Shown: in pieces, positions 1 through 26,450 of the stretch
Position numbering within the stretch: the stretch's first letter is position 1
How the letters are laid out: each line of letters begins with the position of its first letter
From: Cupriavidus necator
GTDB lineage: Bacteria > Pseudomonadota > Gammaproteobacteria > Burkholderiales > Burkholderiaceae
DNA: 32,000 nt
NCBI RefSeq assembly: GCF_016127575.1
Contig: NZ_CP066018.1
Coordinates: 600,001 to 632,000, forward strand
Direction of reading: 5' to 3'
Notes under the pieces: generated by a model
What the model was told of the DNA's origin: nothing
Databases searched by the model: none
The model's input: the letters and a program-made list of their open reading frames with translations, nothing else
Program-made: the position numbers and the translations under genes

Positions 1-919
1 TGGGAAGCGGGGCCAGCCCCGACGCAGCCAGCGCGCCATTGACGGCTGAAGTCGGGATATAGAAGCCCCGTCCGCCCTTGCCGAGGAAGTCGCTGGTCGA
101 AAAGAAGGTCCCGGGCGCGTCGAACTTGAAGCTGTTCCACTTCCACTGGTAGAAGGCCTCCAGGCCGAGGTCCTTGCCGAGTGAAGTGCTCGCAGAGACC
201 ATGGGCGCGGGGATGAACAGATTTTTAAGCGGCGTTCCCGGCTGGTGCGCGGACGGCAGGTAGATCGCGTTGATCGCGTTGATACCGCCCGGGATGTAGA
301 GGTTTTCACCCCAGTTCAGCACCTGGTTGCCGACCCGGACACGCGCCTGCTGGTCGCCGACGTCGAATTCCTTGGTGATGTAGGCGTCGAGCAGACGCGG
401 GTCGCTGGTGGCGAAGTTTCGCGCATCCGAGTCGAGATCGGTTCGTCTGGTGTGGGCGGTCGCAAAGTCATAGTTGACGACGCCGCGCACCAGCCCGCTC
501 CACCCGTTGGTGCCCTTGACATAGAGGTCGCTGGTCCACTGCGCATTGGCCGAAACCGGCTGCCAGCGCTTGTAGTTCAGGTTGCCGTCGTCCTGATTCA
601 GGCGCAGCGTATCCAGGTTCGACGAGAAGACAGACGGGTTACTTTTCTGCAGCGGCGTAGGCGCGTCGCCGACACAGCCGCCGTTGTCGTTGCCGACAAA
701 GCTGCAGTTCGTTTTCGACGTTCTCATCGCTGCACCAAACGAAACCGTCGAGTCGAAGGCTACCGCCCAGCCGTTGTCGAGCGTCCACTGTGCAGCGTAA
801 GCCGAGCCGGCATCCGCCATCGCCAGCAGGCCTACGATTACCGAGCGGGCCAGCTTCCGTTCCATCCGCATCCCCGCGGCGGCTTGCGCCGCCGCTGCTG
901 CAACATCACGCAGTTTCAT
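1..919 (-). CDS. DUF1302-family outer-membrane-associated protein (N-terminal ~306 codons; gene runs off the window start)
   Basis: Absent from the ORF track because it is open at the window edge. My minus-strand translation from ATG 919..917 gives MKLRDVAAAAAQAAAGMRMERKLARSVIVGLLAMADAGSAYAAQWTLDNGW... (signal peptide). It continues without a stop to position 2 (..NYKRWQPVSANAQW..VGNQVLNWGENLYIPGGINAIN..). It lies directly downstream of a DUF1329 gene, its usual partner. Confidence 0.8.
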   Translation of the reverse strand, partial: MKLRDVAAAAAQAAAGMRMERKLARSVIVGLLAMADAGSAYAAQWTLDNGWAVAFDSTVSFGAAMRTSKTNCSFVGNDNGGCVGDAPTPLQKSNPSVFSSNLDTLRLNQDDGNLNYKRWQPVSANAQWTSDLYVKGTNGWSGLVRGVVNYDFATAHTRRTDLDSDARNFATSDPRLLDAYITKEFDVGDQQARVRVGNQVLNWGENLYIPGGINAINAIYLPSAHQPGTPLKNLFIPAPMVSASTSLGKDLGLEAFYQWKWNSFKFDAPGTFFSTSDFLGKGGRGFYIPTSAVNGALAASGLAPLP

Positions 920-949
920 GCCTGTCTCCCCGTGGTTCTCTTTTTTGGC

Positions 950-2314
950 TTATCGTGTGGTGAACCGGCGCAGGCCGTCCGGCTCGAAGGTCTTCTCCTT
1001 CAGGCGCCCTTCCCTCGCGGCGAGCCAGTCAGGCTCCTTGTGGCCGGCGACGACTCGGTCGAGCACGGCGCGGCGGGTCTGGTGGTCATAGCTGGTATTG
1101 GCCGCCCAGACGCAGGCCGGCACTTCCCAGGCCATGTAGGGACCCATCTCGGTGGTGCGCCAGACCTTGCCCTGCGCGTCGTACATGTCCTCCACCAGGA
1201 TCGTCCACGTGTCCTCGTCGATGTAGAACACGCGCTTGGGGAAGGTATGCCGCATGCCTTGCTTGAGCGTGGCCTCGACCACCCACATCCGGTGCAGCTC
1301 ATAGCGCGTCAGGTCGCGGCTGAGGAACTTCGGCTTGACGACTTCATCGACCTTGTTCGCCGAAGAGTTGACCCGGTACGTGTTGTAGGGCACGTACATC
1401 TCCTTCTTGCCGGCCAGCTTCCAGTCATAGCGGTCTAGTGGGCCGTTGAACTGCATGTACTGGTCGACGGTCAGCAGGTTCTCGGTGTTGAGCTGCGGGG
1501 CGTCGTACTGGTATGTCGGCGCGCGGCGCACGCGGCGCTGGCTCGCGAAGTACAGCCAGACGTCGTTGGCCTCGGAGAACTTGTACTGCGTCAGGGTGGC
1601 ATCCCCCGCGATCGAGGGCGGGCTGGTAAACGTGTTGAGGTACAGGCTCTCGATGCCGCGGGCGTCGTCGACGCCCTTGTTCGACGGCGACCACATCGGC
1701 GACATCTGCCATTCCTGCTGGCCAAGCGGCTCCCCAATGCTGTCGGTGCCCTTCGGCGGGATGTAGCCCGCATAGCTCATCTGGAATCCCTCTCCTTTCC
1801 AGTGCAGCTTGTGGTTCCACATGGCTTCGGCGCCGTTCTGCGGAATCGGGAACGGCACGGCGGCGCCGATCGCCTCGGCGAGGTCCTGGCCGTTGGCGCC
1901 AAGCTTCGCCGTCGTTGCGTTCTTCTTCGTCCGCTCGTAGAAGAAGTCGGGGAAACCGCAAGAACGGTGGGTCGGATAAACATCCATCCGATAACCCGGG
2001 ATCGTCTTCACCATTTCGATCTGTCCGGGGGCAAGCTTGTCCTTGTATTTGTCGACATTGGACGCGTCGATCGAAAGTACGCGCTTGTCATTCGCGTACG
2101 GGTCGGGGCGCGCCGTGCCGGGCTTCCAGCCACCCGGTGCCTTCATGTCCCCGCCGGTCCACTCCGGAATCGACCCGTCCTTGTTACCGGCCCGTTCGGC
2201 ACCCACCGGAGTGAGGTCCTTGCCGAGCCGGCCCGCGTCCTGCTCGGAGGCCGCGGCATAGGCCGCTCCGCCGAACGCAAGGGTCACGCTGAGGAACAAC
2301 GTCTTGTATCTCAT
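950..2314 (-). CDS. DUF1329-family periplasmic/outer-membrane lipoprotein-sorting-like protein
   Basis: Track ORF 950..2386, trimmed to ATG 2314 (MRYKTLFLSVTLAFGGAAYAA signal peptide, AGGAGA Shine-Dalgarno just upstream). The motif LTPVGAERAGNKDGSIPEWTGG is characteristic of DUF1329. Confidence 0.85.
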   Translation of the reverse strand: MRYKTLFLSVTLAFGGAAYAAASEQDAGRLGKDLTPVGAERAGNKDGSIPEWTGGDMKAPGGWKPGTARPDPYANDKRVLSIDASNVDKYKDKLAPGQIEMVKTIPGYRMDVYPTHRSCGFPDFFYERTKKNATTAKLGANGQDLAEAIGAAVPFPIPQNGAEAMWNHKLHWKGEGFQMSYAGYIPPKGTDSIGEPLGQQEWQMSPMWSPSNKGVDDARGIESLYLNTFTSPPSIAGDATLTQYKFSEANDVWLYFASQRRVRRAPTYQYDAPQLNTENLLTVDQYMQFNGPLDRYDWKLAGKKEMYVPYNTYRVNSSANKVDEVVKPKFLSRDLTRYELHRMWVVEATLKQGMRHTFPKRVFYIDEDTWTILVEDMYDAQGKVWRTTEMGPYMAWEVPACVWAANTSYDHQTRRAVLDRVVAGHKEPDWLAAREGRLKEKTFEPDGLRRFTTR

Positions 2315-2369
2315 CTGAGTCTCCTGTCTGGCATGGCAACGAAGTGCCTCGCTTCGTGTGTTTTTTTCG

Positions 2370-2439
2370 GTAGAACACGTTACCAAACTTAGGTAACAAT
2401 GACAAAGAACAAAAGAAAAAAAGAGCTAGGGTATTCCCT
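2370..2439 (-). promoter_or_regulatory. Conserved 70-nt promoter/operator module, copy A (upstream of the DUF1329 operon)
   Basis: Read on the minus strand: TTGTCA (2405..2400), 17-nt spacer, TAACGT (2382..2377). The spacer contains the dyad TACC-N7-GGTA. A distal block is AGGGAATACCC. Gap-free alignment to 4084..4153 gives 49/70 identities by hand count. Confidence 0.5.
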
Positions 2440-2750
2440 GCGCGTTTGGCTGCGATGCTCGCAAACGCACCCGGTACCGTGCGCAGCGGCGAACCAATGG
2501 CACGAGGCACGGCTCGCGGCTGCTGGGGTGGCACCGGAAGCCGCAAGCCAACGCTGTCAGTCAGACCGCCGTAGTGATCCGGCGATGCCCCATGCCGCCC
2601 GAGGCTGTGCTGGAGATACACAGGTCCTCAAGGCCGCACGGCCGGGCACAGGTGTTGACCGTCCCGGCAGTGCAGGCCCGCCTGCCCAGCTCTGGAAATC
2701 GTGATCCACGGACTTCGACTGCGCTCGAGGCGCGCGCAGGACAACCAGGC

Positions 2751-3167
2751 TCAGGCGCCGCCGCTGCCAGCTACCGCCACCGCCTGAATCTCGATGCACA
2801 GCTCGGGAAGCGCCAGCTCTGTCACCCCCACCGCAGTCCAGGACGGATAACGGCTCGGCAGGTATTCGTCCTTGACCTTCGTGAAGGCCTCGATTTCCTG
2901 CCGCAGGTTGGTGTGATAGGTCGTCAGCTCGACAACATCCTCCAGGCTTGCGCCTGCCGCTTCGAGGACCGCTTTCAGGGATGCAAAGGCCAGCCGAGCC
3001 TGTGCCTCCATGCCCTCGCCGGGCTTCATCGCTGCGTCTAGCCCAACCTGGCCCGACACCCAGATGGTGTCGCCCACGCGGGTCGCGGGGGCGAAATGGT
3101 AGGCGTCGTAGAGCGGCTGGGTGCCGGGCGGAATGACCGGCTGCCGTTTCATCGTCGTGGTTGTCAT
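2751..3167 (-). CDS. RidA/YjgF/TdcF-family enamine/imine deaminase
   Basis: Track ORF 2751..3206, trimmed to ATG 3167 (MTTTTMKRQPVIPPG..), 18 nt after the stop of the upstream gene. Sequence ..APATRVGDTIWVSGQVG..LEDVVELTTYHT..PSWTAVGVTELALPELCIEIQAVA is typical of the Rid family. Confidence 0.85.
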   Translation of the reverse strand: MTTTTMKRQPVIPPGTQPLYDAYHFAPATRVGDTIWVSGQVGLDAAMKPGEGMEAQARLAFASLKAVLEAAGASLEDVVELTTYHTNLRQEIEAFTKVKDEYLPSRYPSWTAVGVTELALPELCIEIQAVAVAGSGGA

Positions 3168-3184
3168 GATGTCGGTATCGTTTA

Positions 3185-4018
3185 TCAGATGAGTTGGCGG
3201 AAGCATGGCGCACGGAAGGGATCACCTGCCTTCAGCGATGCCAGCTCCTCGACGTACAGCACACCCGCCGGCGTGAAGCCCGAATCGCTGTGGTCCGGCA
3301 ACGGACTGAAAACCGCGTCATCGCCGAAGAAGCGCAAGACCAGCGTATGGCGGTCCGGGAAATCGGCGTCGACAGCACCCCCGCCGTGCAGCGAACCCGG
3401 GTGCAGCAGCAGAACATCTCCGGGCTGCGTAGCCCAGGAGAGGATGTCGTAGGCATTGGGATCGATGCGGCGTTCGGCCTCGATGTCAGGCAGCCGCGGC
3501 CAGACCCCACCGCCGTGCAACGGCTCGGTCGGGTCGTCGGGGTTCTGAAAGGTGCTGCCGTCGTGGCGCGTACCCAGGTACGAGCCCCTGACGATCTCCA
3601 GCGCATTACGCTTGGGGACCGCCTCGAAGCTGATCCACGCGTTGGCGAAGTGCTTTCCCCCCCAAGGCAGGTAGGAGGTGTCTTGGTGCCAGGGCGAGCG
3701 CCCGGCCCGGCCTCCCTGCTTGAGGAACAACTCTTCCGCAAAGTACCAGACATGTTTAGAGCCCCAGAGATCGGCGAACAGCTGGCCGAACGGGAGCGAG
3801 GCGACCAGCTCATCCAGCCGCCCCTTTGCGAATGGATTGGCGTTATCGACGTGCGACCGTTGCACGGAGCCGTCAAACAGGCTATGAGCGTTGGGCCCCG
3901 GGTTCTCGATGCCCCAGTCAAAGACCTGCCTGCACATGGCTAACTGTTCCGCGTTGAGACAGCCTTCGATGAGGACGGCACCGTCCTCATCGAAGGCGCT
4001 GCGCTTGGATTCATCCAT
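3185..4018 (-). CDS. Phytanoyl-CoA dioxygenase (PhyH) family Fe(II)/2-oxoglutarate-dependent oxygenase
   Basis: 277-aa ORF with the HxD iron motif (SPWHQDTSY) and a distal His region (LLLHPGSLHGGG). Overall PhyH-like layout. Confidence 0.85.
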   Translation of the reverse strand: MDESKRSAFDEDGAVLIEGCLNAEQLAMCRQVFDWGIENPGPNAHSLFDGSVQRSHVDNANPFAKGRLDELVASLPFGQLFADLWGSKHVWYFAEELFLKQGGRAGRSPWHQDTSYLPWGGKHFANAWISFEAVPKRNALEIVRGSYLGTRHDGSTFQNPDDPTEPLHGGGVWPRLPDIEAERRIDPNAYDILSWATQPGDVLLLHPGSLHGGGAVDADFPDRHTLVLRFFGDDAVFSPLPDHSDSGFTPAGVLYVEELASLKAGDPFRAPCFRQLI

Positions 4019-4083
4019 GGATGCTCTCCTGATTCTTCATTAAGCCCGGCGCCCGGTCACGTGCGCTTCCGGTCGCCTCGTTT

Positions 4084-4153
4084 GTAGAACAACCTACCAA
4101 CATTAGGTCATGATGACAAAGATAAGTCAGAAGTAAAAGGGCGGGTATTCCCT
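4084..4153 (-). promoter_or_regulatory. Conserved 70-nt promoter/operator module, copy B (between the PhyH operon and the divergent amine oxidase gene)
   Basis: Same blocks and identical spacing as copy A. Minus-strand reading: TTGTCA, N17 (containing ACC-N7-GGT), TAGGTT, GTTCTAC, plus distal AGGGAATACCC. Confidence 0.5.
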
Positions 4154-4280
4154 ATCCCACATGGACTCTCCTCGCCTACGCAGGAATCAACTTGGGCTCG
4201 CGATTCATAATTTTGACTTGTTTGTGTTGTTGACCTATATTTGCCGCGAGCATGCCAATCATTTAACTTTTGTCCTAACA

Positions 4281-5831
4281 ATGCACGCGAAGACACGTGA
4301 AGATGCGCTGGAAGTCGATGCCGCACCGGCAGACATCGTGAACCGCGACACAGTCGCACTGACCCGACGCCGCCTCCTCGGCGCGGCTGCGGCGGCTAGC
4401 GCTGCAACGCTGCTGGCAGGCACACCACGCACAGCGAGTGCAGCGCCGCGGGTGAAGGGCGCCGGCGCCGCATCTGCGGGGCGCGACGTGCTCGATGTCG
4501 CGATCATCGGTGCCGGACTGGCGGGCCTGACCGCCGCACGCGACCTGAAACGCGGCGGATGTGACACGTTCGTCGTCCTGGAGGCACGTAGCCGTGTCGG
4601 CGGCCGCACCTACAACCATGACCTTGGCAACAGCGTGGTCTCGGAAGCCGGCGGGCAGTGGATCGGGCCCGGCCAGACCGCCATTGCTGACCTGGCGCGC
4701 GAGCTCGGCGTCGACACCTTCGAAACCTATTACCAGGGCAAGACCGTGTTCCTGGCCGGCGACGTGCGCGTGGCGCAGGATCTCCAGGGCGGCGTCGGCG
4801 CCCAGGGAAAGGTCGCCGCCAAACTCAGCGAGCTGGCGGGCCGCGTACCCAGCGGCGCCCCCTGGACAGCGGCAAACGCGGCGGAACTAGACAAGCTGTC
4901 GCTCGGCGACTGGCTGGCACGGCAAGACTTGAGCAACGAGGAAAAATTCTCCTTCAGCCTGGCCGCAACCCTGTCGCTCGGCGCGCAACCGGCGCAACTG
5001 GGACTGTTGCACTACCTGTCGGTGATCAACAGCGCTAACAGCGACTACGACACACTTGAGAGGATCAAGGGCGGCGCCCAGGAGACGCGCTTCGTCGGCG
5101 GCGCGCAGATCCTCAGCATCCGGATGGCACGCGAACTTGGCCACAAGGTGCGGCTGTCCTGCCCGGTACGCAAGATCGTTGGCTGGGATCGCGACATTGT
5201 CGAATTGCACACCGACCAGGGCGTGGTACGGGCGCGCCACGTGATCGCCGCACTGAATCCGGCGCTATGCCAGCAGGTCGTCTTCGACCCGCCGCTGCCC
5301 GCCGGACGCGCGCAATTGCATCGGTTCTGGCCGGCGCACGCGCCCATGCGCAAGACGGCGCATGTCTATGCACGGCCCTTCTGGCGCGACAAGGGATTCA
5401 ACGGACAGGTTGTGCCGCTGGACGGCCCGCTGATCTGGTCGGTCGACAACTCGCCGCCAGACGGCTCGGTCGGCGTGATCAGCGCATTCGTCAAGCCTGG
5501 CTTCCTGCCCGCCGAGCCCAAGGCTGCCGAACGCATCCTCTCGGCCATCTATGCCCAGGCGTTCGGGGACAAGGCGTTGAAGCCGACGCAATACCACGAC
5601 CTCGACTGGGGCAAGGTCGATAACTGGTCGATGAGTTGCATCAACCCGATGCCGGCGGGCTTCTGGACGAAGCTGGGCCAGTACCTGCATCCGCCGACAG
5701 GGCGGCTGATCTGGTCTGGCACCGAGACGGCCGACATCTGGGCCGGCGCCATGGATGGTGCCGTGCGCTCCGGCCACCGCGCCGCCCTGCAGGTGCTGGG
5801 CGCCCTGGCATACCCGGTTCGGGAGGCATGA
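4281..5831 (+). CDS. Flavin-dependent amine oxidase family protein with twin-arginine (Tat) signal peptide
   Basis: Track ORF 4161..5831, trimmed to ATG 4281. Tat-type signal LTRRRLLGAAAAASAATLLAGTPRTASA. FAD dinucleotide fold DVAIIGAGLAGLTAARDL...VLEARSRVGGR typical of the MAO/amine oxidase family. Confidence 0.85.
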   Translation: MHAKTREDALEVDAAPADIVNRDTVALTRRRLLGAAAAASAATLLAGTPRTASAAPRVKGAGAASAGRDVLDVAIIGAGLAGLTAARDLKRGGCDTFVVLEARSRVGGRTYNHDLGNSVVSEAGGQWIGPGQTAIADLARELGVDTFETYYQGKTVFLAGDVRVAQDLQGGVGAQGKVAAKLSELAGRVPSGAPWTAANAAELDKLSLGDWLARQDLSNEEKFSFSLAATLSLGAQPAQLGLLHYLSVINSANSDYDTLERIKGGAQETRFVGGAQILSIRMARELGHKVRLSCPVRKIVGWDRDIVELHTDQGVVRARHVIAALNPALCQQVVFDPPLPAGRAQLHRFWPAHAPMRKTAHVYARPFWRDKGFNGQVVPLDGPLIWSVDNSPPDGSVGVISAFVKPGFLPAEPKAAERILSAIYAQAFGDKALKPTQYHDLDWGKVDNWSMSCINPMPAGFWTKLGQYLHPPTGRLIWSGTETADIWAGAMDGAVRSGHRAALQVLGALAYPVREA

Positions 5832-6506
5832 ATGAAATACAAGCGCCCTGTTCTCGTGGCGGCTGCGGCCGTGGTGGCGGTGGCCGCCTTCATCGTCCCC
5901 GACCTCGTGGGCTATCACCGGTTCGGGACGGCACTGGATAACCAGGCCGTAGCCAGCCAGACCGATGGTGGACGCTGGCCGCAATTCCCGGAGACCTGCT
6001 TCGCCTGCCATGGCCCGCGCGGTCAGTCCCACAATGCCGAGTACCCTGCCCTGGCCGGCCAGCCGGCGGCTTTTATCGAGGCGCAGTTGCGCGCCTTCGC
6101 CAGCGGGCAGCGCGACAGCCCGACCATGGGGCCGCTCGCCAGGAACCTGACTGATGAGCAGATCGGGTTGCTGGCAGCCTATTACGCAAAGCAGGCGCCC
6201 ACAGGTAGCCCGGATGTCACGGCCAGCGCCGCGCTCGAGGCGCGCGGCAAGGCTGTGGTCCAGGCGCGCAGTTGCCAGGCCTGCCATGCCGAAGGGTTGA
6301 CCGGAAAGGACCTGGCACCACGCCTCGCCGGCCAGGGCGAGAGCTACCTTGGGCAACAGCTTGCCGCGTTCAAGAGCGGCAAACGCCATGACGCGTCCGG
6401 CGCCATGGACAGCATTGCCGCCGCCTTGTCGAACGAAGACATCCCGGCAGTGGCCCGCTACCTGGCCAGGATGTCGCCTGACCGCCGGGAGATCGGCGCC
6501 CGATAG
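5832..6506 (+). CDS. Di-haem c-type cytochrome (c4-like), N-terminal membrane anchor or signal
   Basis: Two CxxCH motifs (CFACHG, CQACHA). Hydrophobic N-terminus VLVAAAAVVAVAAFIV. Its ATG (5832) follows the oxidase TGA (5829-5831) with no gap. GGGAGG Shine-Dalgarno lies inside the oxidase 3-prime end. Confidence 0.85.
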   Translation: MKYKRPVLVAAAAVVAVAAFIVPDLVGYHRFGTALDNQAVASQTDGGRWPQFPETCFACHGPRGQSHNAEYPALAGQPAAFIEAQLRAFASGQRDSPTMGPLARNLTDEQIGLLAAYYAKQAPTGSPDVTASAALEARGKAVVQARSCQACHAEGLTGKDLAPRLAGQGESYLGQQLAAFKSGKRHDASGAMDSIAAALSNEDIPAVARYLARMSPDRREIGAR

Positions 6507-6565
6507 GGCCCGACGGGGCAGCAAGGGTAGTCGGCAAGATGCGCGGGTCAGACAGGAGGCGGGGA

Positions 6566-7882
6566 ATGAGCCGATACACACCGTCCTGGCTGCCAGCCGG
6601 CTTGGCGGCTGTCCTCATGCTTTGCATGGCGGCAGCCATGGGCGTGGCGCCGCGCAGCGCCTACCATGACGCTGGTGCGCCACGCCGGCTGGAAGCCCTG
6701 CAACTGCCCGACGTGCGCGACCAGCTCGAAAAGCTGGCGGATGCCGGTGCAACTTACATCCACGAGGAGCCCATGCGACGCGGCGACACGATCGCCACGT
6801 TGCTCAGACGGCTCGGCGTGGAAGATCCGGACGCACAGCAGTTCATTTCCAGGGATCCGGCGGCGCGCACCCTTTTCAACCTCCAGCCGGATCAGGTCGT
6901 CCAGGCGGAGGTCGACCAGGACAAGCTGCTGGTCTCGCTGCGCGCCCTCGTTGCCGGCAATTCCTCCGCCTCGCGCGAACTGCTGATCCGGCGGGCCGGC
7001 GACTTCCAGAAGCCCGCCTTCAAGGCGAACTTGCAGGCGGTCAGGAACGAACTGCGTTACGAGATGCGTTCCGGCACCATCACCGCGAATGGGTTCTTCA
7101 GGACGATGGACGCCGCGAAGGTGCCCGACGACATCGTCCGGCAGATGATCTCGATCTTCTCGGGCGTGGTCGATTTCCAGCACGACATCGTCCAAGGCGA
7201 TCGCTTTCACATTGTCTATGAGGCGGGCTTCCGTGATGGTGCGCTGGTGCGCAACGGTCGCGTCGTGGCCGTCGAACTCGTCAACCGCGCCCAGCTCTAC
7301 CAGGCCCTGTGGTATGACGGCGCAGATGGCAGCAACTCCGGTGCCTACTACACCTTCGACGGACGGGGCATGGCGCGCCCGTTTCTCCGCTCGCCGGTCG
7401 AGTTCTCGCGCTTGTCGTCTGGCTTCGGCTGGCGCAACCACCCGGTGCACCACCAATGGATCAAGCACAAGGGTGTCGACTTTGCCGCCCCGACAGGAAC
7501 CCGGGTCTTCGCCACAGCGGACGGGACTGTTGACTTTGTCGGCCAGCAGACAGGCTACGGCAATATCGTCATCCTCAAGCATCCTGACGGCTACTCGACG
7601 TACTATGCGCACCTGTCTGGCTTCGCTGGCATCCAGCCCGGCCAGCGCATCACGCAGGGGCAACTGATCGCGTATATCGGACAGACTGGCTGGGCGACCG
7701 GACCGCATCTGCACTACGAGCTTCGCTTCAATGACGTGCCGCAGAACCCACTGAGCGTCATGCTGATGAAACCCGTCACGCTGTCCGGACGCGCACGCCA
7801 GGGCTTCCTGAGCCATGCCAGCGACATGTTGAGCCGTATCCATGTCCTGCGCGGCATTGAAGTGGCATCCAGCCTCGGCTGA
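6566..7882 (+). CDS. M23-family metallopeptidase with LysM/OapA-like N-terminal region
   Basis: Track ORF trimmed to ATG 6566 (AGGAGG 6 nt upstream). Signal/anchor SWLPAGLAAVLMLCMAAAMG. M23 motifs HKGVDFAAPTGT and GPHLHYELR. Confidence 0.85.
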   Translation: MSRYTPSWLPAGLAAVLMLCMAAAMGVAPRSAYHDAGAPRRLEALQLPDVRDQLEKLADAGATYIHEEPMRRGDTIATLLRRLGVEDPDAQQFISRDPAARTLFNLQPDQVVQAEVDQDKLLVSLRALVAGNSSASRELLIRRAGDFQKPAFKANLQAVRNELRYEMRSGTITANGFFRTMDAAKVPDDIVRQMISIFSGVVDFQHDIVQGDRFHIVYEAGFRDGALVRNGRVVAVELVNRAQLYQALWYDGADGSNSGAYYTFDGRGMARPFLRSPVEFSRLSSGFGWRNHPVHHQWIKHKGVDFAAPTGTRVFATADGTVDFVGQQTGYGNIVILKHPDGYSTYYAHLSGFAGIQPGQRITQGQLIAYIGQTGWATGPHLHYELRFNDVPQNPLSVMLMKPVTLSGRARQGFLSHASDMLSRIHVLRGIEVASSLG

Positions 7883-8054
7883 GCCGCCCCAAGTGGCGCA
7901 CTGTCGACTCGCGAGTTGACCGGGGACTTCCCCGCGCATGCCGGTTTGCGCCGGCAGTGGCTGCGAGTATGCTTTCCTTCATGACGCGGATTCCGGCCGG
8001 CCTGCCATCGCCTCTTGCGTGCAGACGCCAGACCGCCGACTGCGGGGGCAGATC

Positions 8055-9647
8055 ATGCGCAGGCAGCCTCATGACGGATCGGGAAAGGATCGACCTTCCG
8101 CCCTCGACTTCAGGGAGGGCGAGCCGCACTTCAGGCTGCTCGCCGACGGCATCCCTCACATGATCATGACCGCCGATGCGGATGGCCGGATCGATTACTG
8201 CAACCGACGGTGGACGAGCTATACCGGCCTCAGTCTTGAGCAGACTCGGTCCGGCGCCTGGAAATCGGCCGTCCACCCCGAGGACTACGCGCGCAATATC
8301 GGCCACTGGGCAGACGCAGTGGCGAGAGGCTGCGAGTACGAAATCGAATATCGCCTGAAACGGGCATCCGATGGCGCCTACCGATGGCACCTCGAACGCG
8401 GGTCACCATTGAAGGATGCTGATGGCAAGATCGTAAAGTGGCTTGCATCCGGCACCGACATCGAAGCGCTGAAGCAGGCCCAGGCCTCTGCTGAAAGTGC
8501 CAACCATGCGAAGTCGGAGTTCCTGTCAAGCATGAGTCATGAATTGCGCAATCCGCTGAACGCCATCCTTGGCTTCGCGCAGCTGATGGCCTCTGAGGCT
8601 CCGCCTCCGACTGCGTCGCAGCAGGCCAGCATCGACCAGATCCTGAAGGCGGGCTGGCATTTGCTGGAGCTCATCAACGAAGTCCTTGACCTGGCCAGGA
8701 TAGAAGCCGGTCAGGCGTCGCTGTCCCCTGAGCCGGTATCGGTCATCGACACCTTGCACGAGTGCCAGGCAATGCTTGAGCAGCAAGCACTGAAACGCTC
8801 GGTCCGCATGCGGTTTCCCGCAGTCGAACCACCCTGCTTCGTCCGTGCCGACAGGACCCGCTTGAAGCAAATCCTCCTCAACCTGCTTTCCAATGCCATC
8901 AAGTACAACCGGGACCAAGGCTCAGTCGATGTGCAGGTGACGACGACGGGACATCGCGTAGGCGTCAGCGTGCGCGACACTGGAGTAGGGTTGACACCGG
9001 AACGGCTGGCCCAGCTATTCCAGCCGTTCAACCGCCTGGGGCATGAGGCAGGCCCCGTGGAAGGCACCGGCATCGGCCTCGTGGTGGCCAAGCGGCTGGC
9101 CGAGTTGATGGGAGGAACCATCAGCGCCAAAAGCACGCCTGGCGTGGGCAGCGTGTTCCGGGTCGAACTGCCTGCTGCCGCGCCTCCCGCAATGGCTGGC
9201 GAGAGCACGGAGGCCGCCGCACCTGTCCGGTCGCCAATCGAAGCCCCGTCCACGATGCACACCTTGCTGTATGTCGAAGACAACCCCGCCAACCTTAAGC
9301 TCCTGGAGCAACTCCTCGCCCGCCGGGCAGACGTGCATTTGCTGTCGGCGGCCACCGGGATTCTCGGAGTCGAGCTCGCGCGCACTTCGCTGCCCGATGC
9401 GATAGTGATGGATATCCATCTGCCGGACATCAATGGCATCGAAGCACTGGGACGCCTGCGCGAAGACCCGATGACAATGCATATTCCGGTCATCGCGCTC
9501 AGTGCCAATGCCATGCCACGCGACATCGAGCGGGGCATGAAGGCAGGATTCTTCCGGTACCTGACCAAGCCCATCAGGATCCACGAATTCATGGATGCAC
9601 TGAACGCCGCACTGGAACAACCGCGAGGATCAATTGCGCAGGGCTAG
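8055..9647 (+). CDS. Cytoplasmic PAS-domain hybrid sensor histidine kinase (PAS-HisKA-HATPase-REC)
   Basis: H-box SHELRNPLNAILGF, N-box LLSNAIKYN, G-boxes DTGVGL and GTGIGL. C-terminal receiver (LLYVEDNPANL..VMDIHLPDINGIE..LTKPI). No hydrophobic segments. The start is uncertain: ATG 8055 has the better G-rich ribosome-binding site, and ATG 7938 is the longest option. Confidence 0.85.
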   Translation: MRRQPHDGSGKDRPSALDFREGEPHFRLLADGIPHMIMTADADGRIDYCNRRWTSYTGLSLEQTRSGAWKSAVHPEDYARNIGHWADAVARGCEYEIEYRLKRASDGAYRWHLERGSPLKDADGKIVKWLASGTDIEALKQAQASAESANHAKSEFLSSMSHELRNPLNAILGFAQLMASEAPPPTASQQASIDQILKAGWHLLELINEVLDLARIEAGQASLSPEPVSVIDTLHECQAMLEQQALKRSVRMRFPAVEPPCFVRADRTRLKQILLNLLSNAIKYNRDQGSVDVQVTTTGHRVGVSVRDTGVGLTPERLAQLFQPFNRLGHEAGPVEGTGIGLVVAKRLAELMGGTISAKSTPGVGSVFRVELPAAAPPAMAGESTEAAAPVRSPIEAPSTMHTLLYVEDNPANLKLLEQLLARRADVHLLSAATGILGVELARTSLPDAIVMDIHLPDINGIEALGRLREDPMTMHIPVIALSANAMPRDIERGMKAGFFRYLTKPIRIHEFMDALNAALEQPRGSIAQG

Positions 9648-9673
9648 CACCGAGTCCCGCGAACTGGCTTGCC

Positions 9674-10846
9674 ATGATCCACCCATCGGACATCCTGGCT
9701 GCAAAAATCCTGGTCGTTGACGATCTGGAGGCCAATGTCCTGCTGCTCGAAAGGATGCTGCATGCGGCCGGATATACCAGCGTCGAATCAACCACCGATC
9801 CGCGCATGGTTTCCGAGCTTCACGGCAGGAACCACTATGACCTGATCGTGCTGGATCTCCAGATGCCTGGCATGGACGGGTTCGAGGTCATGGAGAATCT
9901 CAAGGTCGTCCAGCCGGACAGCTACCTTCCGGTGATCGTTGTCACCGCCCAACCCGATCACAAACTGCGCGCACTGCAGGCCGGCGCGAAGGACTTTGTC
10001 AGCAAGCCATTCGATCTCGGCGAGGTACTGATGCGGGTGCGGAACATGCTGGAGGTACGCCTGCTGCACAGTGAGTCCTTGCAGTACGGCAAGGAACTCG
10101 AGCGCAAGGTGCAGGAACTGGAAGCGAGCCGGGAGACGATAGTCCGTCAGAGCGATGAGCTCAGGCGCCTTTACGAAAAGCTTGTTTGCGAGCAACAGGT
10201 CACTGAGCGTCTTCTGCTAAACGTGTTGCCAGCTCCGATCGCCGAACGTCTGAAACAGCGTTCCCATCCTTTATCCGCCGGCCCTCCGGACGTCATCGCC
10301 GACAGGTTCGAGTCGGTGTCAGTACTGTTTGCAGATATTGTGCATTTCACCCGCTTCGCTCCCGGCATGAGCCCAGAACTACTAGTGGAGGTACTAAACG
10401 AGATATTTGCCGCCTTTGATGAAATCGCCGACGGCCGGGGACTCGAGAAGATCAAGACAATCGGCGACGCATACATGGCGGCCGCCGGTTTGCCGATACC
10501 GGTGGCGGATCATGCCGTTCGGGCCGCCCATATGGCATTAGACATGATGGAGTCGCTGAGCCGATTCAATCAGCGAAGCGGCTACGCGCTGCGGTTGCGG
10601 ATTGGCATCCATAGCGGGGCCGTCGTAGCCGGGGTGATTGGGAGGCGAAAGTTCATCTATGACTTGTGGGGTGATACCGTGAACATCGCGAGCCGGATGG
10701 AGTCTCAGGGCATAGTCGGCGGCATTCAAGTAACTGACGACACTCGACAGCAACTTGGAAAAACCTTCCTACTCGAAGACCACGGGGTGATTGCAGCAAG
10801 AGGCATCGGAGACGTGCATACATGGCATCTGGTTGGGAGAAACTAG
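9674..10846 (+). CDS. Response-regulator receiver fused to a class III adenylate/guanylate cyclase domain
   Basis: REC domain (KILVVDDLEAN..LDLQMPGMDGFE..SKPF), a coiled-coil linker, then cyclase motifs VSVLFADIVHFT, KTIGDAYMAAAG and GIHSGAVVAGVIG..YDLWGDTVNIASRMES. Confidence 0.9.
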   Translation: MIHPSDILAAKILVVDDLEANVLLLERMLHAAGYTSVESTTDPRMVSELHGRNHYDLIVLDLQMPGMDGFEVMENLKVVQPDSYLPVIVVTAQPDHKLRALQAGAKDFVSKPFDLGEVLMRVRNMLEVRLLHSESLQYGKELERKVQELEASRETIVRQSDELRRLYEKLVCEQQVTERLLLNVLPAPIAERLKQRSHPLSAGPPDVIADRFESVSVLFADIVHFTRFAPGMSPELLVEVLNEIFAAFDEIADGRGLEKIKTIGDAYMAAAGLPIPVADHAVRAAHMALDMMESLSRFNQRSGYALRLRIGIHSGAVVAGVIGRRKFIYDLWGDTVNIASRMESQGIVGGIQVTDDTRQQLGKTFLLEDHGVIAARGIGDVHTWHLVGRN

Positions 10847-15557: not shown

Positions 15558-17651
15558 CTATAGCTCACTGACATTTACACCGAGTTTTCGCAGTATCTTC
15601 TTCGCCTGCTCTGCGCGCTCAAGGATCACCCTGAAACCATTCATTTTACCCACCGCTTCCGCCTCACGAATTGCGATTTGGCTTTTTGTAAAGCGCTCCG
15701 ACCAAAATGCTATGTGACTCTTATCAATAATCGCACATGCACATCCCGCACATACGCTTGAATCTCGCGTGGCAAAATTCGGATATCGCCGGAACCATAA
15801 TGAGGTATTTGAAATCTCATGACACCTCATTTCGCTCGTTTTTACCGGACAGCATGTTGCATACTCCGTAAAAAAGAATTGAAGCTCTTGATTGTCAGCC
15901 CACTCGTCGACGATCCGCCACCTCTCAGAAGTTGGTAATTCGCCTAAATCGTCTTTAAATTCAGCGATCGAATCACCCAAAGTTTGGGCCATTCTACCCG
16001 CGGCAATACTATCTCCTGTTGCCATCTCATAAATCAGTAAATTTCTTCTTTGCCTAGAAACCGAATCCAGGGCTTCAACTTGGAGTGGATTATTCCCTAT
16101 ATAACCGCCCTCCGTCACCGCCATATTGAGGTGATGAAACTGCATTTGTATTGCACCAAGAAGGCTCGGATTTGCCGCCAGGGTAAAGCTGGCCCAGGTC
16201 TTTCGAAGCATATGAGAGCTAAAGATCTTTCCTTTTGACTCGCGCCAAGGGATCAGCTCGCCGTCGGATACTTTTTGCCGCGATTCGTTCGGCAGAGCCG
16301 TCAGGTTTACCCAGTCAACAATAAAATCCCTCATTGCTTTCCTGAGGGAGTCCGACAAAATGGGCTTCAGCGTCCCCGAAGGATGAGAGAGGGAGGCATG
16401 GCCGCGCCACTGAAGTATTAGCCGATCGGTGACCGCGTGATCACGCCAAAGCGAGAAAAGACGGTTAAGAACCTGAAGCGCACGTATTGCAGGCGGTATT
16501 TCATTGCTTCCTTCCGGGCGCATCCCAAGCACCCAGTCAACTTCGATGGGGGGCCCCTCCTTAGTCTTTGAGAGCAACGATCGGACAAGAAACCACTCGT
16601 ATAGACCACGTGAGCTGGATTCCAAACGGACATTACTTGGTAGCCCAGACACAGGATCAATGCCTCCCTTTAGCCCACAAATTTCTGAAATGCGCATGCC
16701 CGACATTCCTTGAACAATGATGGCGCACGCACCCAGCAAATCATATGCAAGCATTCGTGTAGTCCTATGTGCTGCACTCTCTCCATACATGTCACTTGGC
16801 AACTCGGCCAGAGGTCGATGCCATGGCTCACTCGAATCTTTTCCACTCCCAAACTCGAATCGTCGCAGGTCGCGTCGCATTCTCTTGATTCGCTGCGCGC
16901 GCCCTTCATTTGGATGTTGCGCAAGGATCGCCACAAGCCGAAGTATGTCTTCAGCCGGCTGCGACAGAAACCAGAGCGCTTCATTGAACATCGGCACAGC
17001 AACTTCATCTGGTATGGGCTTTATCCACCCTACGCTTTGTCCGGCGCATTCGTCAGCGATACTAGCCAATGATTTTCGAAAAAATGGATCTATTGAAATG
17101 GATTCAATTCCCATCTGCGCCATAGGAATACGTTGACGCCACAAGTTAGCAAGGGCTTCAAGGGCACGTCTTGCAACCGACACAGTGATTTTTTCCTCGT
17201 CTGTACAGTCAAGCATGAATTGGGGTAATTCATCTATATATCTGGAGACGACGCCAGCTGTCAGCTGAGATGGTACGTGGTAGCCATTTATGGCCATCCA
17301 CGACAATAACCACTTGAAAGATTGCTGGTGGGCGGAAACACCTCCAACCATCGTCGGCACTCCTTCGGCCGGCATTTTAAGGAGAGTCAAAAGGAGCGTC
17401 TTCGACCAATGTAAGCGTGCAGCGTGGTGTGGGTCAGTGAGCTTACTCCCGTCAAAGAGTTCTATACTCCAATTGATGGTGCTTGCGGTTTTTTTAAGGC
17501 CAGGCGTAGTCGGCGTAAACTCCCACCTAACATCCTTAAATTGACTATGCTCACTGAGCCAATAATCTTCTAGCTCCTCCTTATTTCTCTGAAACAGCGC
17601 TTTTGGCTCGCGCGAACTAGATCGATTAAGTTTGGCGGAGTTGCGCTGCAT
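15558..17651 (-). CDS. Tyrosine recombinase/integrase, third gene of the trio (RitC position)
   Basis: Track ORF 15558..17774, trimmed to ATG 17651, 5 nt after the preceding stop. Catalytic signatures GMRISEICGL (Arg), SHMLRKTWASF (HxxR) and HHLNMAVTEGGYIG (His..Tyr). Confidence 0.85.
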   Translation of the reverse strand: MQRNSAKLNRSSSREPKALFQRNKEELEDYWLSEHSQFKDVRWEFTPTTPGLKKTASTINWSIELFDGSKLTDPHHAARLHWSKTLLLTLLKMPAEGVPTMVGGVSAHQQSFKWLLSWMAINGYHVPSQLTAGVVSRYIDELPQFMLDCTDEEKITVSVARRALEALANLWRQRIPMAQMGIESISIDPFFRKSLASIADECAGQSVGWIKPIPDEVAVPMFNEALWFLSQPAEDILRLVAILAQHPNEGRAQRIKRMRRDLRRFEFGSGKDSSEPWHRPLAELPSDMYGESAAHRTTRMLAYDLLGACAIIVQGMSGMRISEICGLKGGIDPVSGLPSNVRLESSSRGLYEWFLVRSLLSKTKEGPPIEVDWVLGMRPEGSNEIPPAIRALQVLNRLFSLWRDHAVTDRLILQWRGHASLSHPSGTLKPILSDSLRKAMRDFIVDWVNLTALPNESRQKVSDGELIPWRESKGKIFSSHMLRKTWASFTLAANPSLLGAIQMQFHHLNMAVTEGGYIGNNPLQVEALDSVSRQRRNLLIYEMATGDSIAAGRMAQTLGDSIAEFKDDLGELPTSERWRIVDEWADNQELQFFFTEYATCCPVKTSEMRCHEISNTSLWFRRYPNFATRDSSVCAGCACAIIDKSHIAFWSERFTKSQIAIREAEAVGKMNGFRVILERAEQAKKILRKLGVNVSEL

Positions 17652-17656
17652 ACCTA

Positions 17657-19519
17657 TCAGCCCACCTGCGGCAGCGAAATATGAAACCTCAAAGCTTTGC
17701 TCATGATCTGTTCGGGCACCATATTTAGGAGGTTGTTCAAAGCCGACAGCCTTGGTGCCCAACGGCAGGACCAACTATTCCCGCTCATCTGCACTTGACT
17801 GGCAAGGAGACTGCTTTTCAATGCAAGGTAGTATGCAACACTAATGGCATCATTTGGTCTCGCGACCGCAAGGGGACAGGTCGGACAGCCTCCGTAGTCT
17901 TTGCACAGTACGCCGGAGCGCTGCCCCGGGGAGGGAGAATCAAACGGATCAAGGCAGCGAAAGCCTGGCGTAGCCGCCGCACGGTCATCAGTATTGGTAA
18001 GTCGACGGGGATCAATTTTTCCCTGTGTATTGATCCATCTCTCCCGTAATAATATTACCTCTCCGACTTTTTCCCGGTTCCGCTTGCGGGCTCCATCGCT
18101 GGTGTAATGTGTCCAGGTTGTGCTCATGCGGGAATGATTACCCACTGCCCGCGCCGCCTCCAGGCCACCATCGAACTGTTGCACCATATCAATAATGGTG
18201 GGTCGAATCTGCCCCAAGGTAAAATTTGGCAGCCTATTATCAGCAATAAACTCCTGCAGCTTCGGCCGCCATCCCGAGGAACGTAGGGTGTCATCGGTGA
18301 ATGAGATCACCCGCTTCTGACCTACTTTGGGCACAAAGACGAATACTCTATCGCGATCCTTTTTTTCACAAACTGGCCGAATCCTCGACGTAATTCGCTC
18401 CAAAAGATCTAAGAGATAGTCAAAGCAAAACTTCCTCGAAATGCTCGCCGATGGATCAAGCAACCGCACCAGATCTTTCTTTGCGCGGGCCTTTTCTCCG
18501 ATTACACGTATTCCTCTCAGCCCAAGTCGAAGGAAATTTCTGTCAATCGCGCTCCACTTGAGGCGTAGAACCGTATTGGGGTTAAAGACTGTGGCGATGG
18601 TTAGCAATATCACCAGAGGAACGAGATCACGGGGACTGGAATACAAGTAAGACGCTAGAGTTCGGGCACCGTGCTCCGTCGCTGCGTACCCGAGGCTCCT
18701 ATTTTCCTTCCCAATATCCTCAAGCGTAGGAAGCACGTTTGGATACTTCGCCGCCAACATTGCAAGACATACCGAAACGTTCTTGAGGTCAGTGTGTCCT
18801 TCTTCGATTGCTCGCTTACCCTCCGAGATGAGGACGCCCCCATAATCCAGCCTCGAAGCAATCTCCTCCAGTTCTTCTTCACACGCATCGATAATCGCTA
18901 CTAGCGAGCTGGCTGAAATGACTTCCAAGGGTGAGGCTCTTCGAGCTGCCCCAAAGGGACCTCGAGGCACACGTTGGGCGATGGACTGGGCGCTTTCTGC
19001 CCAGGGCCCCTTGTCTATCACTGATAGCAATATCCGCGGACATCCGAGATAGTTTTTGATGCTATTAGGATGGAGCGGTTTCCCCCTAACACGTCTTGCA
19101 AATAGCCACTCACGATATCCGGTGAACAATTCATCATTAAGATCAGGCGGAGTTAGCTCTACTCCTGCGTAGCAACTGTCCAAATACGAAAACAATCCAT
19201 TTCGCAACGTATAAACTAGCCCCACACGCGTGCGAATACTACGGGTGGGAGCCCAAAGCAAAATCGCTTGTGCAAAGAGCGGCATCAACTCTGACTGCGT
19301 GAGAAGGAAGCTAAGATCAAGTGCCTGCGTCTCCCCGACATCGGTTCGGATCAGTGCACGAAGCGTCGGCCGTCCATCGTCACGACGCCCCGATTCAAGA
19401 AGATTTACAGGAAACAATGGATGGGCACGATCCTTAGAACCATCCTCGGCATTAAGCTGGCGAACGACGCTCGCCGCCGAAGACACTCGCTTCGCACGGA
19501 TGGTCCTATTCTCGCTCAT
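17657..19519 (-). CDS. Tyrosine recombinase/integrase, second gene of the trio (RitB position)
   Basis: 620 aa. C-terminal catalytic region ..LGQIRPTIIDMV..VGNHSRMSTTWTHYTS (xxR, His, Tyr). Its start overlaps the stop of the first gene as ATGA (19516-19519). Confidence 0.85.
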   Translation of the reverse strand: MSENRTIRAKRVSSAASVVRQLNAEDGSKDRAHPLFPVNLLESGRRDDGRPTLRALIRTDVGETQALDLSFLLTQSELMPLFAQAILLWAPTRSIRTRVGLVYTLRNGLFSYLDSCYAGVELTPPDLNDELFTGYREWLFARRVRGKPLHPNSIKNYLGCPRILLSVIDKGPWAESAQSIAQRVPRGPFGAARRASPLEVISASSLVAIIDACEEELEEIASRLDYGGVLISEGKRAIEEGHTDLKNVSVCLAMLAAKYPNVLPTLEDIGKENRSLGYAATEHGARTLASYLYSSPRDLVPLVILLTIATVFNPNTVLRLKWSAIDRNFLRLGLRGIRVIGEKARAKKDLVRLLDPSASISRKFCFDYLLDLLERITSRIRPVCEKKDRDRVFVFVPKVGQKRVISFTDDTLRSSGWRPKLQEFIADNRLPNFTLGQIRPTIIDMVQQFDGGLEAARAVGNHSRMSTTWTHYTSDGARKRNREKVGEVILLRERWINTQGKIDPRRLTNTDDRAAATPGFRCLDPFDSPSPGQRSGVLCKDYGGCPTCPLAVARPNDAISVAYYLALKSSLLASQVQMSGNSWSCRWAPRLSALNNLLNMVPEQIMSKALRFHISLPQVG

Positions 19520-20757
19520 AATCCGATTATTTTCCGCACATCATACAGACCAGGCTGCATATTAAATACCTCCACATGAGCTAAATAGATATCAATAGTC
19601 GTCTGTAGATGCTTGTGTCCGAGTTGTGCTTGTATTTTTTTCCAAGGCTCTGGATTTCCGCTCATACGTTCAGCGTGATACGTAAGCACGGCGTATGTAT
19701 GCCGGAGATCATGGATTGAGTGCCTCGCCCGCTTCCTAAAAAAATTATTGGCGCCCTCTGGATCGATGCAATCGACAATCTTCAACCGCCCGATACCGAG
19801 GCATGCCTCCTCAAAAATTCCTTGCATGCGGCTGATTGAAATTGGCTTACTCTGGCGACTGCTTCCGTATTGACTCAGAAATAGCCGGATCGGTTGATTT
19901 CGAAAAGGAATATCAGTCACCTGGAGTACCGCGGCGCGCTCACCTTCAATGTAAGCAAGAATATCGGACACGAGCCAATTAGGAATCGCGACAGCGCATG
20001 TCTTGCCTCCCTTTCGGACGATACTCAGTTGCTGATCAGCACTCGGAGCTAAAGGATCAGGTGCCAGCGCGAGAAACTGCAAGATCGTCAATGCTGCAAT
20101 CTCTCCTACGCGGAGGCCCACAGCCCATCCCAGATCGAAAATGATCCTATTTCGGCTTAGCCGTTGATCACCGGCCATTTTTTGCGTTGCACGAGGCCCA
20201 GCATACTGCAATAATGCCCGCAAATCCTGTCGCGTCAGAGGATGAATTGCCAAATTAGGCCGAGCCTTTGGAAGATCAACGTCTCTGTAATGTCGAAAAT
20301 CGCTGCCGCAGAGATTTGACCCAATGTCTCCGTCGTACCATTCGGCATCCCGCGCATAAATATAAAAATCTCGGATAACCGACATTCTGCTTTTTACCGT
20401 GGACGCATGGTACTTCCCCCCCGTCTTCGGGGAAATCGCAACCATGTAAGCATCTCTGTAATCAATTCGATCTTGTGAGGACGCCAGCCTCCAGTCTCTC
20501 TTCAGGATCTGCAGATACTGAAACCAGGTTTTCAATGCCTGTGCCACGGCTGCCCAAGTATGCGGGCTAGTTCTAATTCCTCGCGCAACTATGCGCTCGT
20601 GTAAATAGAGACTGGGCTCTTCAAAAACAAGTGATTGACTACTGGTCCGAATGAAAAAAGATGGCTGCCCAACCGTGAGACTGCTCACACCTGGTTCATG
20701 GTGCGCGCAAAGCACAATCTCACCTTCCAAGAAATCGAGCATTGAAACATTGGACAT
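19516..20757 (-). CDS. Tyrosine recombinase/integrase, first gene of the trio (RitA position)
   Basis: 413 aa with the full catalytic set: GLRVGEI (Arg), KGGK (Lys), HDLRHTYA (HxxR), LGHKHLQTT (His) and IYLA (Tyr). Confidence 0.9.
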   Translation of the reverse strand: MSNVSMLDFLEGEIVLCAHHEPGVSSLTVGQPSFFIRTSSQSLVFEEPSLYLHERIVARGIRTSPHTWAAVAQALKTWFQYLQILKRDWRLASSQDRIDYRDAYMVAISPKTGGKYHASTVKSRMSVIRDFYIYARDAEWYDGDIGSNLCGSDFRHYRDVDLPKARPNLAIHPLTRQDLRALLQYAGPRATQKMAGDQRLSRNRIIFDLGWAVGLRVGEIAALTILQFLALAPDPLAPSADQQLSIVRKGGKTCAVAIPNWLVSDILAYIEGERAAVLQVTDIPFRNQPIRLFLSQYGSSRQSKPISISRMQGIFEEACLGIGRLKIVDCIDPEGANNFFRKRARHSIHDLRHTYAVLTYHAERMSGNPEPWKKIQAQLGHKHLQTTIDIYLAHVEVFNMQPGLYDVRKIIGL

Positions 20758-25398: not shown

Positions 25399-25418
25399 CG
25401 ATGTCTCCCAACATGTAT

Positions 25419-25453
25419 GAAAAAGCCGTTCGCGGGTCACCCCCGGAACGGCT
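25419..25453 (-). terminator. Rho-independent terminator-like hairpin between etfA and the acyl-CoA dehydrogenase gene
   Basis: Minus strand: AGCCGTTC-N14-GAACGGCT followed by TTTTTC. A second perfect 9-bp hairpin (25470-25490) lies just after the etfA stop. Confidence 0.55.
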
Positions 25454-25496
25454 CGTACTTGCTACCAGTGCCGGCCGCCTGGCGGCCGGCAAGGCA

Positions 25497-26432: not shown

Positions 26433-26450
26433 GTTATTTCTCCCCCGCGC

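Follow-up and report, generated by a model that had tools for sequence, protein, structure and literature searches.

That many bacterial 'amine oxidases' are cytochrome-linked dehydrogenases is a principle set by NicA2 and Pnao, enzymes of the flavin amine oxidase (FAO) family that are exported by the twin-arginine translocation (Tat) pathway, react poorly with O2 and pass their electrons to CycN, a cytochrome c encoded in their operon; one such cluster can hold two FAO paralogues. This principle was extended in 2025 by Akram, Stull et al. (Biochemistry; PMC12224317), who searched 2911 FAO sequences for a Tat signal together with an adjacent cytochrome c gene and found three clades of putative dehydrogenases, of which clade 1, placed far from clades 2 and 3, is defined by two features, a Tat signal and, in the neighbouring gene, a membrane-bound dihaem c4 cytochrome of ~20 kDa. 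Here we describe a gene pair that very likely falls into this clade, located in a 32,000-nucleotide stretch of Cupriavidus necator (RefSeq assembly GCF_016127575.1, contig NZ_CP066018.1, positions 600,001 to 632,000 of the forward strand), which is referred to as the window. In this pair a flavin amine oxidoreductase of the monoamine oxidase (MAO)/FAO family is followed immediately by a dihaem c4-type cytochrome c.

An earlier note on this DNA had proposed that the flavoprotein is a periplasmic dehydrogenase and not an oxidase. The proposal is sound but not new, since the same idea was published in 2025 as clade 1 (PMC12224317), and the locus adds no new principle. For clade 1 the paper gives no substrate, neighbourhood analysis or active-site differences (PMC12224317), and this is the least understood branch, with an in vitro cytochrome reaction too slow to convince. 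New here are the conserved gene neighbourhood of the pair and the replacement of the MAO aromatic cage by Ile and Ala while the Cys at MAO's covalent-flavin position is invariant, and together the neighbourhood and the altered active site offer concrete leads to the substrate.

Classical amine oxidases are the closest solved relatives of the flavoprotein, matching it over the full length (E=1e-48 to 7e-78) and sharing with it the GxGxxG motif, Lys358, a C-terminal GTETA motif and a Cys at the position of covalent flavin adenine dinucleotide (FAD) attachment. However, the classical enzymes use O2 and are not Tat-exported, MAO-A and MAO-B being mitochondrial membrane proteins, whereas the flavoprotein has a Tat signal and a cytochrome partner. 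The cytochrome resembles the cytochromes c4 of Pseudomonas stutzeri, Pseudoalteromonas and others (6q2u, 1etp) in having two class I domains, each with a CxxCH motif and an aligned Met. Classical c4 cytochromes are typically soluble or peripherally bound and their signal peptides are cleaved, whereas the window cytochrome has a conserved hydrophobic N-terminus without an obvious cleavage site, followed by a ~30-residue linker. A further parallel comes from sphingosine detoxification in Pseudomonas aeruginosa, where a Tat-exported periplasmic flavoprotein, SphC, and a membrane-tethered cytochrome c, SphB, act on a hydrophobic amine. A reading of SphC as an FAO-family enzyme was set aside, since it is described as an oxidoreductase linked to flavin mononucleotide (FMN); SphB is a c5-like lipoprotein, and the likeness to the window pair is one of analogy only.

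The flavoprotein and its predicted Tat signal

The flavoprotein gene lies at 4281-5831 (+) and encodes a 516-aa precursor (~49 kDa when mature), while the cytochrome gene at 5832-6506 (+) encodes a protein of 224 aa (23.5 kDa); together these open reading frames (ORFs) span exactly the coordinates given in the earlier note (4281-6506). The flavoprotein, which is 100% identical to a database C. necator protein, was assigned by its Pfam and PDB matches. It matched Pfam PF01593 (Amino_oxidase) with E=3.4e-49 and 168.8 bits, against a cut-off of 19.8 bits, and this match spanned residues 80-506 and the entire profile (1-443 of 443). Over its whole length it also matched the PDB entries 8p84, a 'monoamine oxidase' (E=7e-78), and 3rha, a putrescine oxidase (2e-60), as well as MAO-A/B (~1e-55) and cyclohexylamine oxidase (~1e-54). 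There was no specific NCBIfam model for the protein, and a literature search on 8p84 and its sister entries found nothing relevant.

Residues 1-54 (4281-4442, +) form a predicted Tat signal peptide, in which the N-terminus reads L-T-R29-R30-R-L-L-G-AAAAASAATLLAG-TPRT-ASA-AP, with the arginine pair encoded at 4365-4370 and cleavage expected between ASA and AP. After the S/T-R-R-x-L-L motif come a weakly hydrophobic, Ala-rich h-region (Kyte-Doolittle mean 1.4), a c-region containing an Arg, and an AxA site. An alignment of 15 flavoprotein sequences shows no variation at R29 and R30, and the RR motif is present in 97/98 homologous flavoprotein genes (sample described below), the lone exception being truncated at a contig end. 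The T-R-R-R-L-L motif, the mild h-region and the ASA site agree with the Tat signal proposed in the earlier note, and the arginine pair is retained across homologues.

In the public annotation the flavoprotein starts at ATG 4161 (556 aa). This is probably too long, with the true start probably at ATG 4281, because a sigma-70-like promoter match (TTGACT-17-TATATT, 4213-4241, +) in the AT-rich divergent intergenic region falls inside the 4161-4280 extension. The promoter match agrees with 10/12 consensus positions and is a consensus match alone, with 1 found versus 0.5 expected. Furthermore, homologues of the flavoprotein are 480-520 aa long, compared with the annotated 556 aa, and the peptide EDALEVDA, which is N-terminal in the translation from 4281, is kept in a 77%-identical homologue. 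GTG 4338 is a possible alternative start, and there is no obvious Shine-Dalgarno sequence at either ATG 4281 or GTG 4338.

The dihaem cytochrome and the coupling junction

The downstream protein was assigned by two stretches matching Pfam Cytochrom_C (E=9e-18) and by a match to PDB cytochrome c4 6q2u over residues 54-212 (E=3e-21), while its best NCBIfam model, PdsA, scored well under the cut-off (83 vs 330 bits). Its two CxxCH motifs, which the earlier note had reported, are CFACH at residues 56-60 (5997-6011) and CQACH at residues 148-152 (6273-6287). One Met for each haem motif, Met99 and Met192, lines up with its counterpart in solved cytochromes c4; across 90 homologues the CxxCH and Met columns are at least 90% conserved. 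The N-terminus is Lys/Arg-rich and leads into a 16-residue hydrophobic segment (residues ~7-22, nt ~5850-5897, +; Kyte-Doolittle mean 3.06) that is not followed by an AxA site, and homologues likewise conserve N-terminal Lys/Arg and a ~17-residue hydrophobic segment without an AxA site. We read this segment as an anchor that would hold the cytochrome in the membrane, which agrees with the earlier description of a dihaem and anchored partner unlike CycN.

The junction between the two genes (5821-5834, +) contains a GGGAGG Shine-Dalgarno sequence (5821-5826), the flavoprotein stop codon TGA (5829-5831) and the cytochrome start codon ATG (5832), and the stop abuts the start with a 0-nt gap, as had been noted before. 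The best explanation for this arrangement is that the flavoprotein and cytochrome genes form a translationally coupled operon.

Relationship to clade 1 and to NicA2-CycN

Every clade-1 feature that can be read from sequence is present in the window pair, namely the Tat signal and an adjacent 23.5 kDa dihaem c4 with a hydrophobic N-terminal segment. The clade-1 enzymes that have been assayed come from Burkholderia metallica, Burkholderia stagnalis and P. aeruginosa (PMC12224317), and the window flavoprotein is 75%, ~71% and 64% identical, respectively, to homologues found in these three species. The B. metallica and P. aeruginosa loci have the same flavoprotein-cytochrome architecture, with two pairs each. 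Taking the species names, the identities and the locus architecture together, we conclude that the window flavoprotein very likely belongs to clade 1. What it has in common with its clade-1 relatives is the Tat signal, the adjacent ~20-23 kDa dihaem c4 with its putative N-terminal anchor and the wider neighbourhood; however, in the C. necator window the accessory operon runs divergently, and the catabolic genes that lie downstream elsewhere are lacking.

As judged from sequence, the resemblance to NicA2-CycN is one of functional logic and not of recent common ancestry. The NicA2 structures (7c4a, 5ttj) scored 70-87 bits with the flavoprotein, compared with 190-266 bits for MAO, putrescine oxidase and cyclohexylamine oxidase; individually, 7c4a, which is NicA2 (PMC12224317), scored 70 bits and the MAO-like 8p84 scored 266 bits. 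CycN, a soluble monohaem class I cytochrome of ~11 kDa, serves both of its enzymes, whereas here each flavoprotein has its own dihaem c4 with a predicted anchor, and the NicA2 system lies in a nicotine-pathway context, which is lacking at the window locus. On account of the different cytochrome type, the sequence distance and the lack of this context, we do not place the locus in the NicA2/Pnao-CycN system.

Conservation and co-duplication of the pair

We compared the window with 80 genomic loci that carry flavoprotein relatives 59-94% identical to the window protein, giving 98 flavoprotein genes in all. The sampled taxa were Cupriavidus, Ralstonia, Burkholderia, Paraburkholderia, Caballeronia, Pandoraea, Pseudomonas, Marinobacter, Variovorax, Rhodocyclaceae and others. 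A homologous cytochrome lies directly downstream, on the same strand, in 96/98 flavoprotein genes, with a junction of -4, -1 or 0 nt in 70/96 pairs and of 9-17 nt in 20 more, and two CxxCH motifs are present in 93/96 of these downstream cytochromes. The pairing is not chance, and the adjacency, whose absence from related genomes the earlier note had named as grounds for abandoning its proposal, is conserved.

The two genes without a downstream cytochrome are genuine exceptions and not search failures. In L030 a membrane protein comes next and a second pair lies nearby, while in L049 the downstream region is degraded. L049 is from a metagenome-assembled genome labelled Thermodesulfobacteriota, and at 2200-4200 of this locus a flavoprotein (69% identical, as a locus match) without a downstream cytochrome is followed by fragmented ORFs resembling flavin monooxygenase, in a region that looks degraded. 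Its taxonomic label looks doubtful, because the flavoprotein gene is otherwise seen only in Proteobacteria.

Two paralogue groups can be told apart among the flavoproteins, the window type with 75 copies and a second group, which we call paralogue-B, with 23. In many genomes a second pair is present in the same cluster, with a flavoprotein 56-63% identical to the window protein, examples being L037 11638-13116 (-), L052 11730-13229 (-), L025 13563-15047 (+), L079 7842-9455 (+) and L081 13010-15888 (+). After the paralogue-B cytochrome there is usually a gene for a multi-pass membrane protein of ~220 aa that matches no Pfam family. Distance matrices of the flavoproteins and the cytochromes were correlated with r=0.94 (Mantel test; 0/999 permutations reached this r), a high value of the kind that common phylogeny alone may yield. 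However, the cytochromes separate into two groups that mirror those of the flavoproteins, at a between-group distance of 0.57 and within-group distances of 0.43-0.46, and this parallel split shows that each pair was duplicated and retained as a unit. Near-universal coupling and co-duplication strengthen the genetic case for a true partnership between flavoprotein and c4.

Active-site residues

The GxGxxG motif (G77, G79, G82) is invariant in the 98 homologues, as is E101, the acidic residue that ends strand 2, except for one E101D copy. K358 is invariant in 98/98, aligns with a Lys in both 8p84 and 3rha, and is presumably equivalent to NicA2 Lys340, the conserved Lys beside flavin N5. In the alignment to MAO-A chains, C453 (C453-I454, 5637-5642, +) falls at Cys406, the covalent FAD site of MAO-A, and is invariant in 98/98 homologues; FAD may be covalently bound through Cys453.

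The two-Tyr aromatic cage that faces the flavin in MAO is not found in the flavoprotein, which has I454 and A490 at the aligned positions. I454 stands at the MAO-A Tyr407 position of the cage and is Ile or Val in the 98 homologues, while A490 (5748-5750, +), at the position of the second cage Tyr (MAO-A Tyr444), is Ala, Ser or Gly in 75/75 window-type copies and Tyr in 23/23 paralogue-B copies. This difference at position 490 suggests that the two paralogues differ in substrate or handle successive intermediates, in the manner of NicA2 and Pnao. A structure of the flavoprotein predicted from the 15-sequence alignment was unusable (mean predicted local distance difference test score 42.6; predicted template modelling score 0.34) and supports no structural claim.

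The electron acceptor

We consider it reasonably likely that the pair is a periplasmic, cytochrome-linked flavoprotein amine dehydrogenase, in which the c4 cytochrome serves as electron acceptor instead of O2. In the mechanism that we propose, the flavoprotein would fold with its FAD in the cytoplasm, perhaps with a covalent bond via Cys453, and would be exported in this folded form by the Tat pathway. In the periplasm it would oxidise the C-N bond of a (probably hydrophobic) amine to an imine, which would be hydrolysed to an aldehyde or ketone with release of ammonia or an amine. The dihaem c4 cytochrome of the adjacent gene, tethered to the periplasmic side of the inner membrane by its uncleaved N-terminal anchor, would then reoxidise the reduced flavin in two steps of one electron each and hand the electrons to a terminal oxidase, so that no H2O2 would be made. 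c4 cytochromes commonly donate to cbb3-type oxidases. Within this scheme we infer the periplasmic location, the anchoring, the route to the oxidase, the substrate class and the covalent FAD.

For the assayed clade-1 enzymes the rate constant of reoxidation by O2, kox(O2), is 160-590 M-1 s-1, comparable with free flavin, and the authors concluded that O2 is probably not the acceptor used physiologically (PMC12224317). This slow reaction, at the level of free flavin, supports the part of the earlier note's claim that the enzyme is not an oxidase. The genetic predictions hold as well, with Tat motif, synteny and coupling all conserved. The part that concerns transfer to the cytochrome fares less well, and several published measurements weigh against it: kox for the cognate c4 cytochrome is only 290-2700 M-1 s-1, which is only ~2-5x the value for O2 and 100-1000x below that of NicA2/Pnao-type pairs (1e4-1e6), and ligand binding raises the O2 reactivity of some family members 27- to 125-fold (PMC12224317). 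The low c4 rates were ascribed by the authors to the assay of a membrane protein in solution, which is their suggestion (PMC12224317). As the published clade-1 rates are modest, we regard electron transfer from the flavoprotein to c4 as plausible and grade it no higher, which leaves the proposal of the earlier note partly supported. C. necator is genetically tractable and would be a convenient host in which to decide whether the anchored c4 is the physiological acceptor.

The same measurements could be taken to mean that the flavoprotein is a genuine periplasmic oxidase, which would use O2, release H2O2 and have its O2 reactivity switched on by bound substrate or product, leaving the cytochrome otherwise employed, for example in detoxification or in supplying electrons to another enzyme. 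Ligand speeds the reaction of MAO-A 125-fold and of NctB 27-fold, the clade-1 cytochrome rates barely exceed those with O2, and, among FAOs with a Tat signal, those that lack an adjacent cytochrome are fast oxidases (PMC12224317). We none-the-less judge an oxidase to be unlikely, as the cytochrome is adjacent and translationally coupled in 96/98 genes and the pairs were duplicated as units. Moreover, the ligand-free O2 rates of clade 1 are those of free flavin, and the adjacent cytochrome c gene is the stronger predictor of dehydrogenase function (PMC12224317).

Less likely still, in our estimate, is a dehydrogenase for which c4 is not the direct or sole acceptor, with another periplasmic or membrane carrier receiving the electrons and c4 acting as a downstream relay or docking subunit. 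Such a carrier would fit the slow in vitro transfer from flavin to c4 (PMC12224317), the small membrane protein conserved after the cytochrome in paralogue-B pairs, and the Tat-exported DAO-family flavoprotein that is co-clustered in 67% of loci (this and all other neighbourhood shares were computed over those 63 loci whose sequence spans at least 15 kb). However, the window pair has no extra membrane protein and is followed by an M23 peptidase, every flavoprotein copy retains its own cytochrome, and in other clades FAO-cytochrome pairs are specific (PMC12224317). 

Gene neighbourhood and a candidate hydrophobic-amine cluster

Divergent from the pair in the window is an operon whose first gene encodes a PhyH-family Fe(II)/2-oxoglutarate dioxygenase (3185-4018, -; Pfam PF05721, E=6e-15). 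It is followed by a RidA/YjgF-family protein, a predicted imine/enamine deaminase (2751-3206, -; PF01042, E=2e-24; start probably ~3167), a DUF1329 envelope protein (950-2386, -; PF07044, E=9e-134) and the N-terminal part of a DUF1302 protein, which crosses the left edge of the window (1-920, -). The last was assigned because its translation resembles the DUF1302 cluster representative, which comes from a related locus and matches Pfam DUF1302, and in the nearest locus, L001 (deposited as Ralstonia pickettii), DUF1302 and MMPL genes come next. The nearest solved relative of the PhyH neighbour is MysH, a weak match (E=1e-13, over half the protein) that was set aside as uninformative about the substrate.

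Across the loci, the families found near the pair are RidA (81%), AMP-dependent (acyl-CoA) ligase (68%), DUF1302 (67%), the Tat-signal DAO-family flavoprotein (67%), PhyH dioxygenase (63%), DUF1329 (62%), an SCP-x-type thiolase-like protein (62%), MMPL/RND protein (56%), DUF5938/saccharopine-dehydrogenase-like protein (51%) and BNR/Ycf48-like protein (46%). At least one of these families is present in 62/63 loci, and TetR regulators are common too. In Burkholderia and Paraburkholderia these genes and the pair form a single co-directional cluster, whereas in the window and the loci with the closest copies a PhyH-RidA-DUF1329-DUF1302(-MMPL) operon is divergent from the pair and the downstream catabolic genes are absent; the window lacks the acyl-CoA ligase, thiolase-like, DUF5938 and Tat-DAO genes after its pair. 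The window layout is kept in six other loci with the closest copies (80-95% identical), five from Cupriavidus together with L001.

The lack of these four genes, which follow the pair in Burkholderia and Paraburkholderia, could be read as the mark of a functionless inherited relic, either silent or an orphan detached from its pathway, but we think this highly improbable, as both ORFs are intact with all invariant residues and motifs retained, there is a promoter-like site as well as a strong Shine-Dalgarno sequence, and the divergent PhyH-RidA-DUF1329-DUF1302 operon has been kept, with the same layout in the six other closest-copy loci.

DUF1302, DUF1329, BNR and RND proteins are known as a co-fit envelope module, which recurs in clusters for phenanthrene, p-cresol, steroids and fatty esters. 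Because this module recurs in clusters for hydrophobic compounds, the substrate of the pair would by analogy be a hydrophobic or amphiphilic amine. More tentatively, and with less confidence than we attach to the dehydrogenase itself, the pair could be the periplasmic entry step of a widespread, undescribed catabolic island of ~13 genes in Burkholderiales and Pseudomonas that acts on a hydrophobic or lipid-like amine. Such an island would comprise an envelope module for hydrophobic compounds (DUF1302, DUF1329, BNR, MMPL), up to two paralogous flavoprotein-c4 pairs whose active sites differ (Ala/Ser/Gly or Tyr at position 490), the Tat-exported DAO-family flavoprotein and a cytoplasmic set (PhyH, RidA, DUF5938, acyl-CoA ligase and thiolase-like enzymes), under TetR control. 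If this is true, the anchored c4 would wire amine oxidation straight to the respiratory chain at the membrane, which would account for the poor kinetics in solution. Literature searches on the combination of neighbourhood genes and on long-chain alkylamine dehydrogenase genes found nothing.

The DAO-family FAD oxidoreductase, at L016 14839-16335 (+) and in equivalents elsewhere, is distantly like sarcosine and glycine oxidases and carries an RR-type signal, RRTFVKGAAATALV; it is the third exported flavoprotein of the cluster and is absent from the window. In P. aeruginosa an accessory locus (L083 13205-17444, -) encodes an FMO/Baeyer-Villiger-type monooxygenase, an alpha/beta-hydrolase (Abhydrolase_3) and an AMP-ligase. 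This gene set follows the ketone-to-ester-to-acid logic of cycloalkylamine and alkyl-ketone pathways, a possible hint, by analogy, that the amine carbon is secondary.

Other features of the window

Three genes at 6539-10846 (+) lie downstream of the cytochrome. Their products are a MepM/ShyC-like M23 peptidase, a hybrid histidine kinase with PAS and receiver domains, and a response regulator that carries a fused adenylate/guanylate cyclase domain. Four of the loci with the closest copies (L001, L005, L006 and L014) have the kinase-cyclase pair at the same position, and the M23 peptidase recurs in L001, L003 and L006. Other genera conserve none of the three, so a link with the flavoprotein-cytochrome pair is improbable.

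Between ~10800 and 21000 the G+C content of the window is 0.48-0.59, compared with 0.63-0.68 in the flanks. This stretch, which probably represents an integrated island, contains an ORF of the phage-integrase family (19516-20757, -) and two large ORFs that match no Pfam family (15558-17774 and 17657-19519, -). No tRNA gene turned up anywhere in the window. Further along, 23614-27200 (-) encodes an acyl-CoA dehydrogenase with a C-terminal extension domain, followed by the alpha and beta subunits of an electron-transfer flavoprotein.

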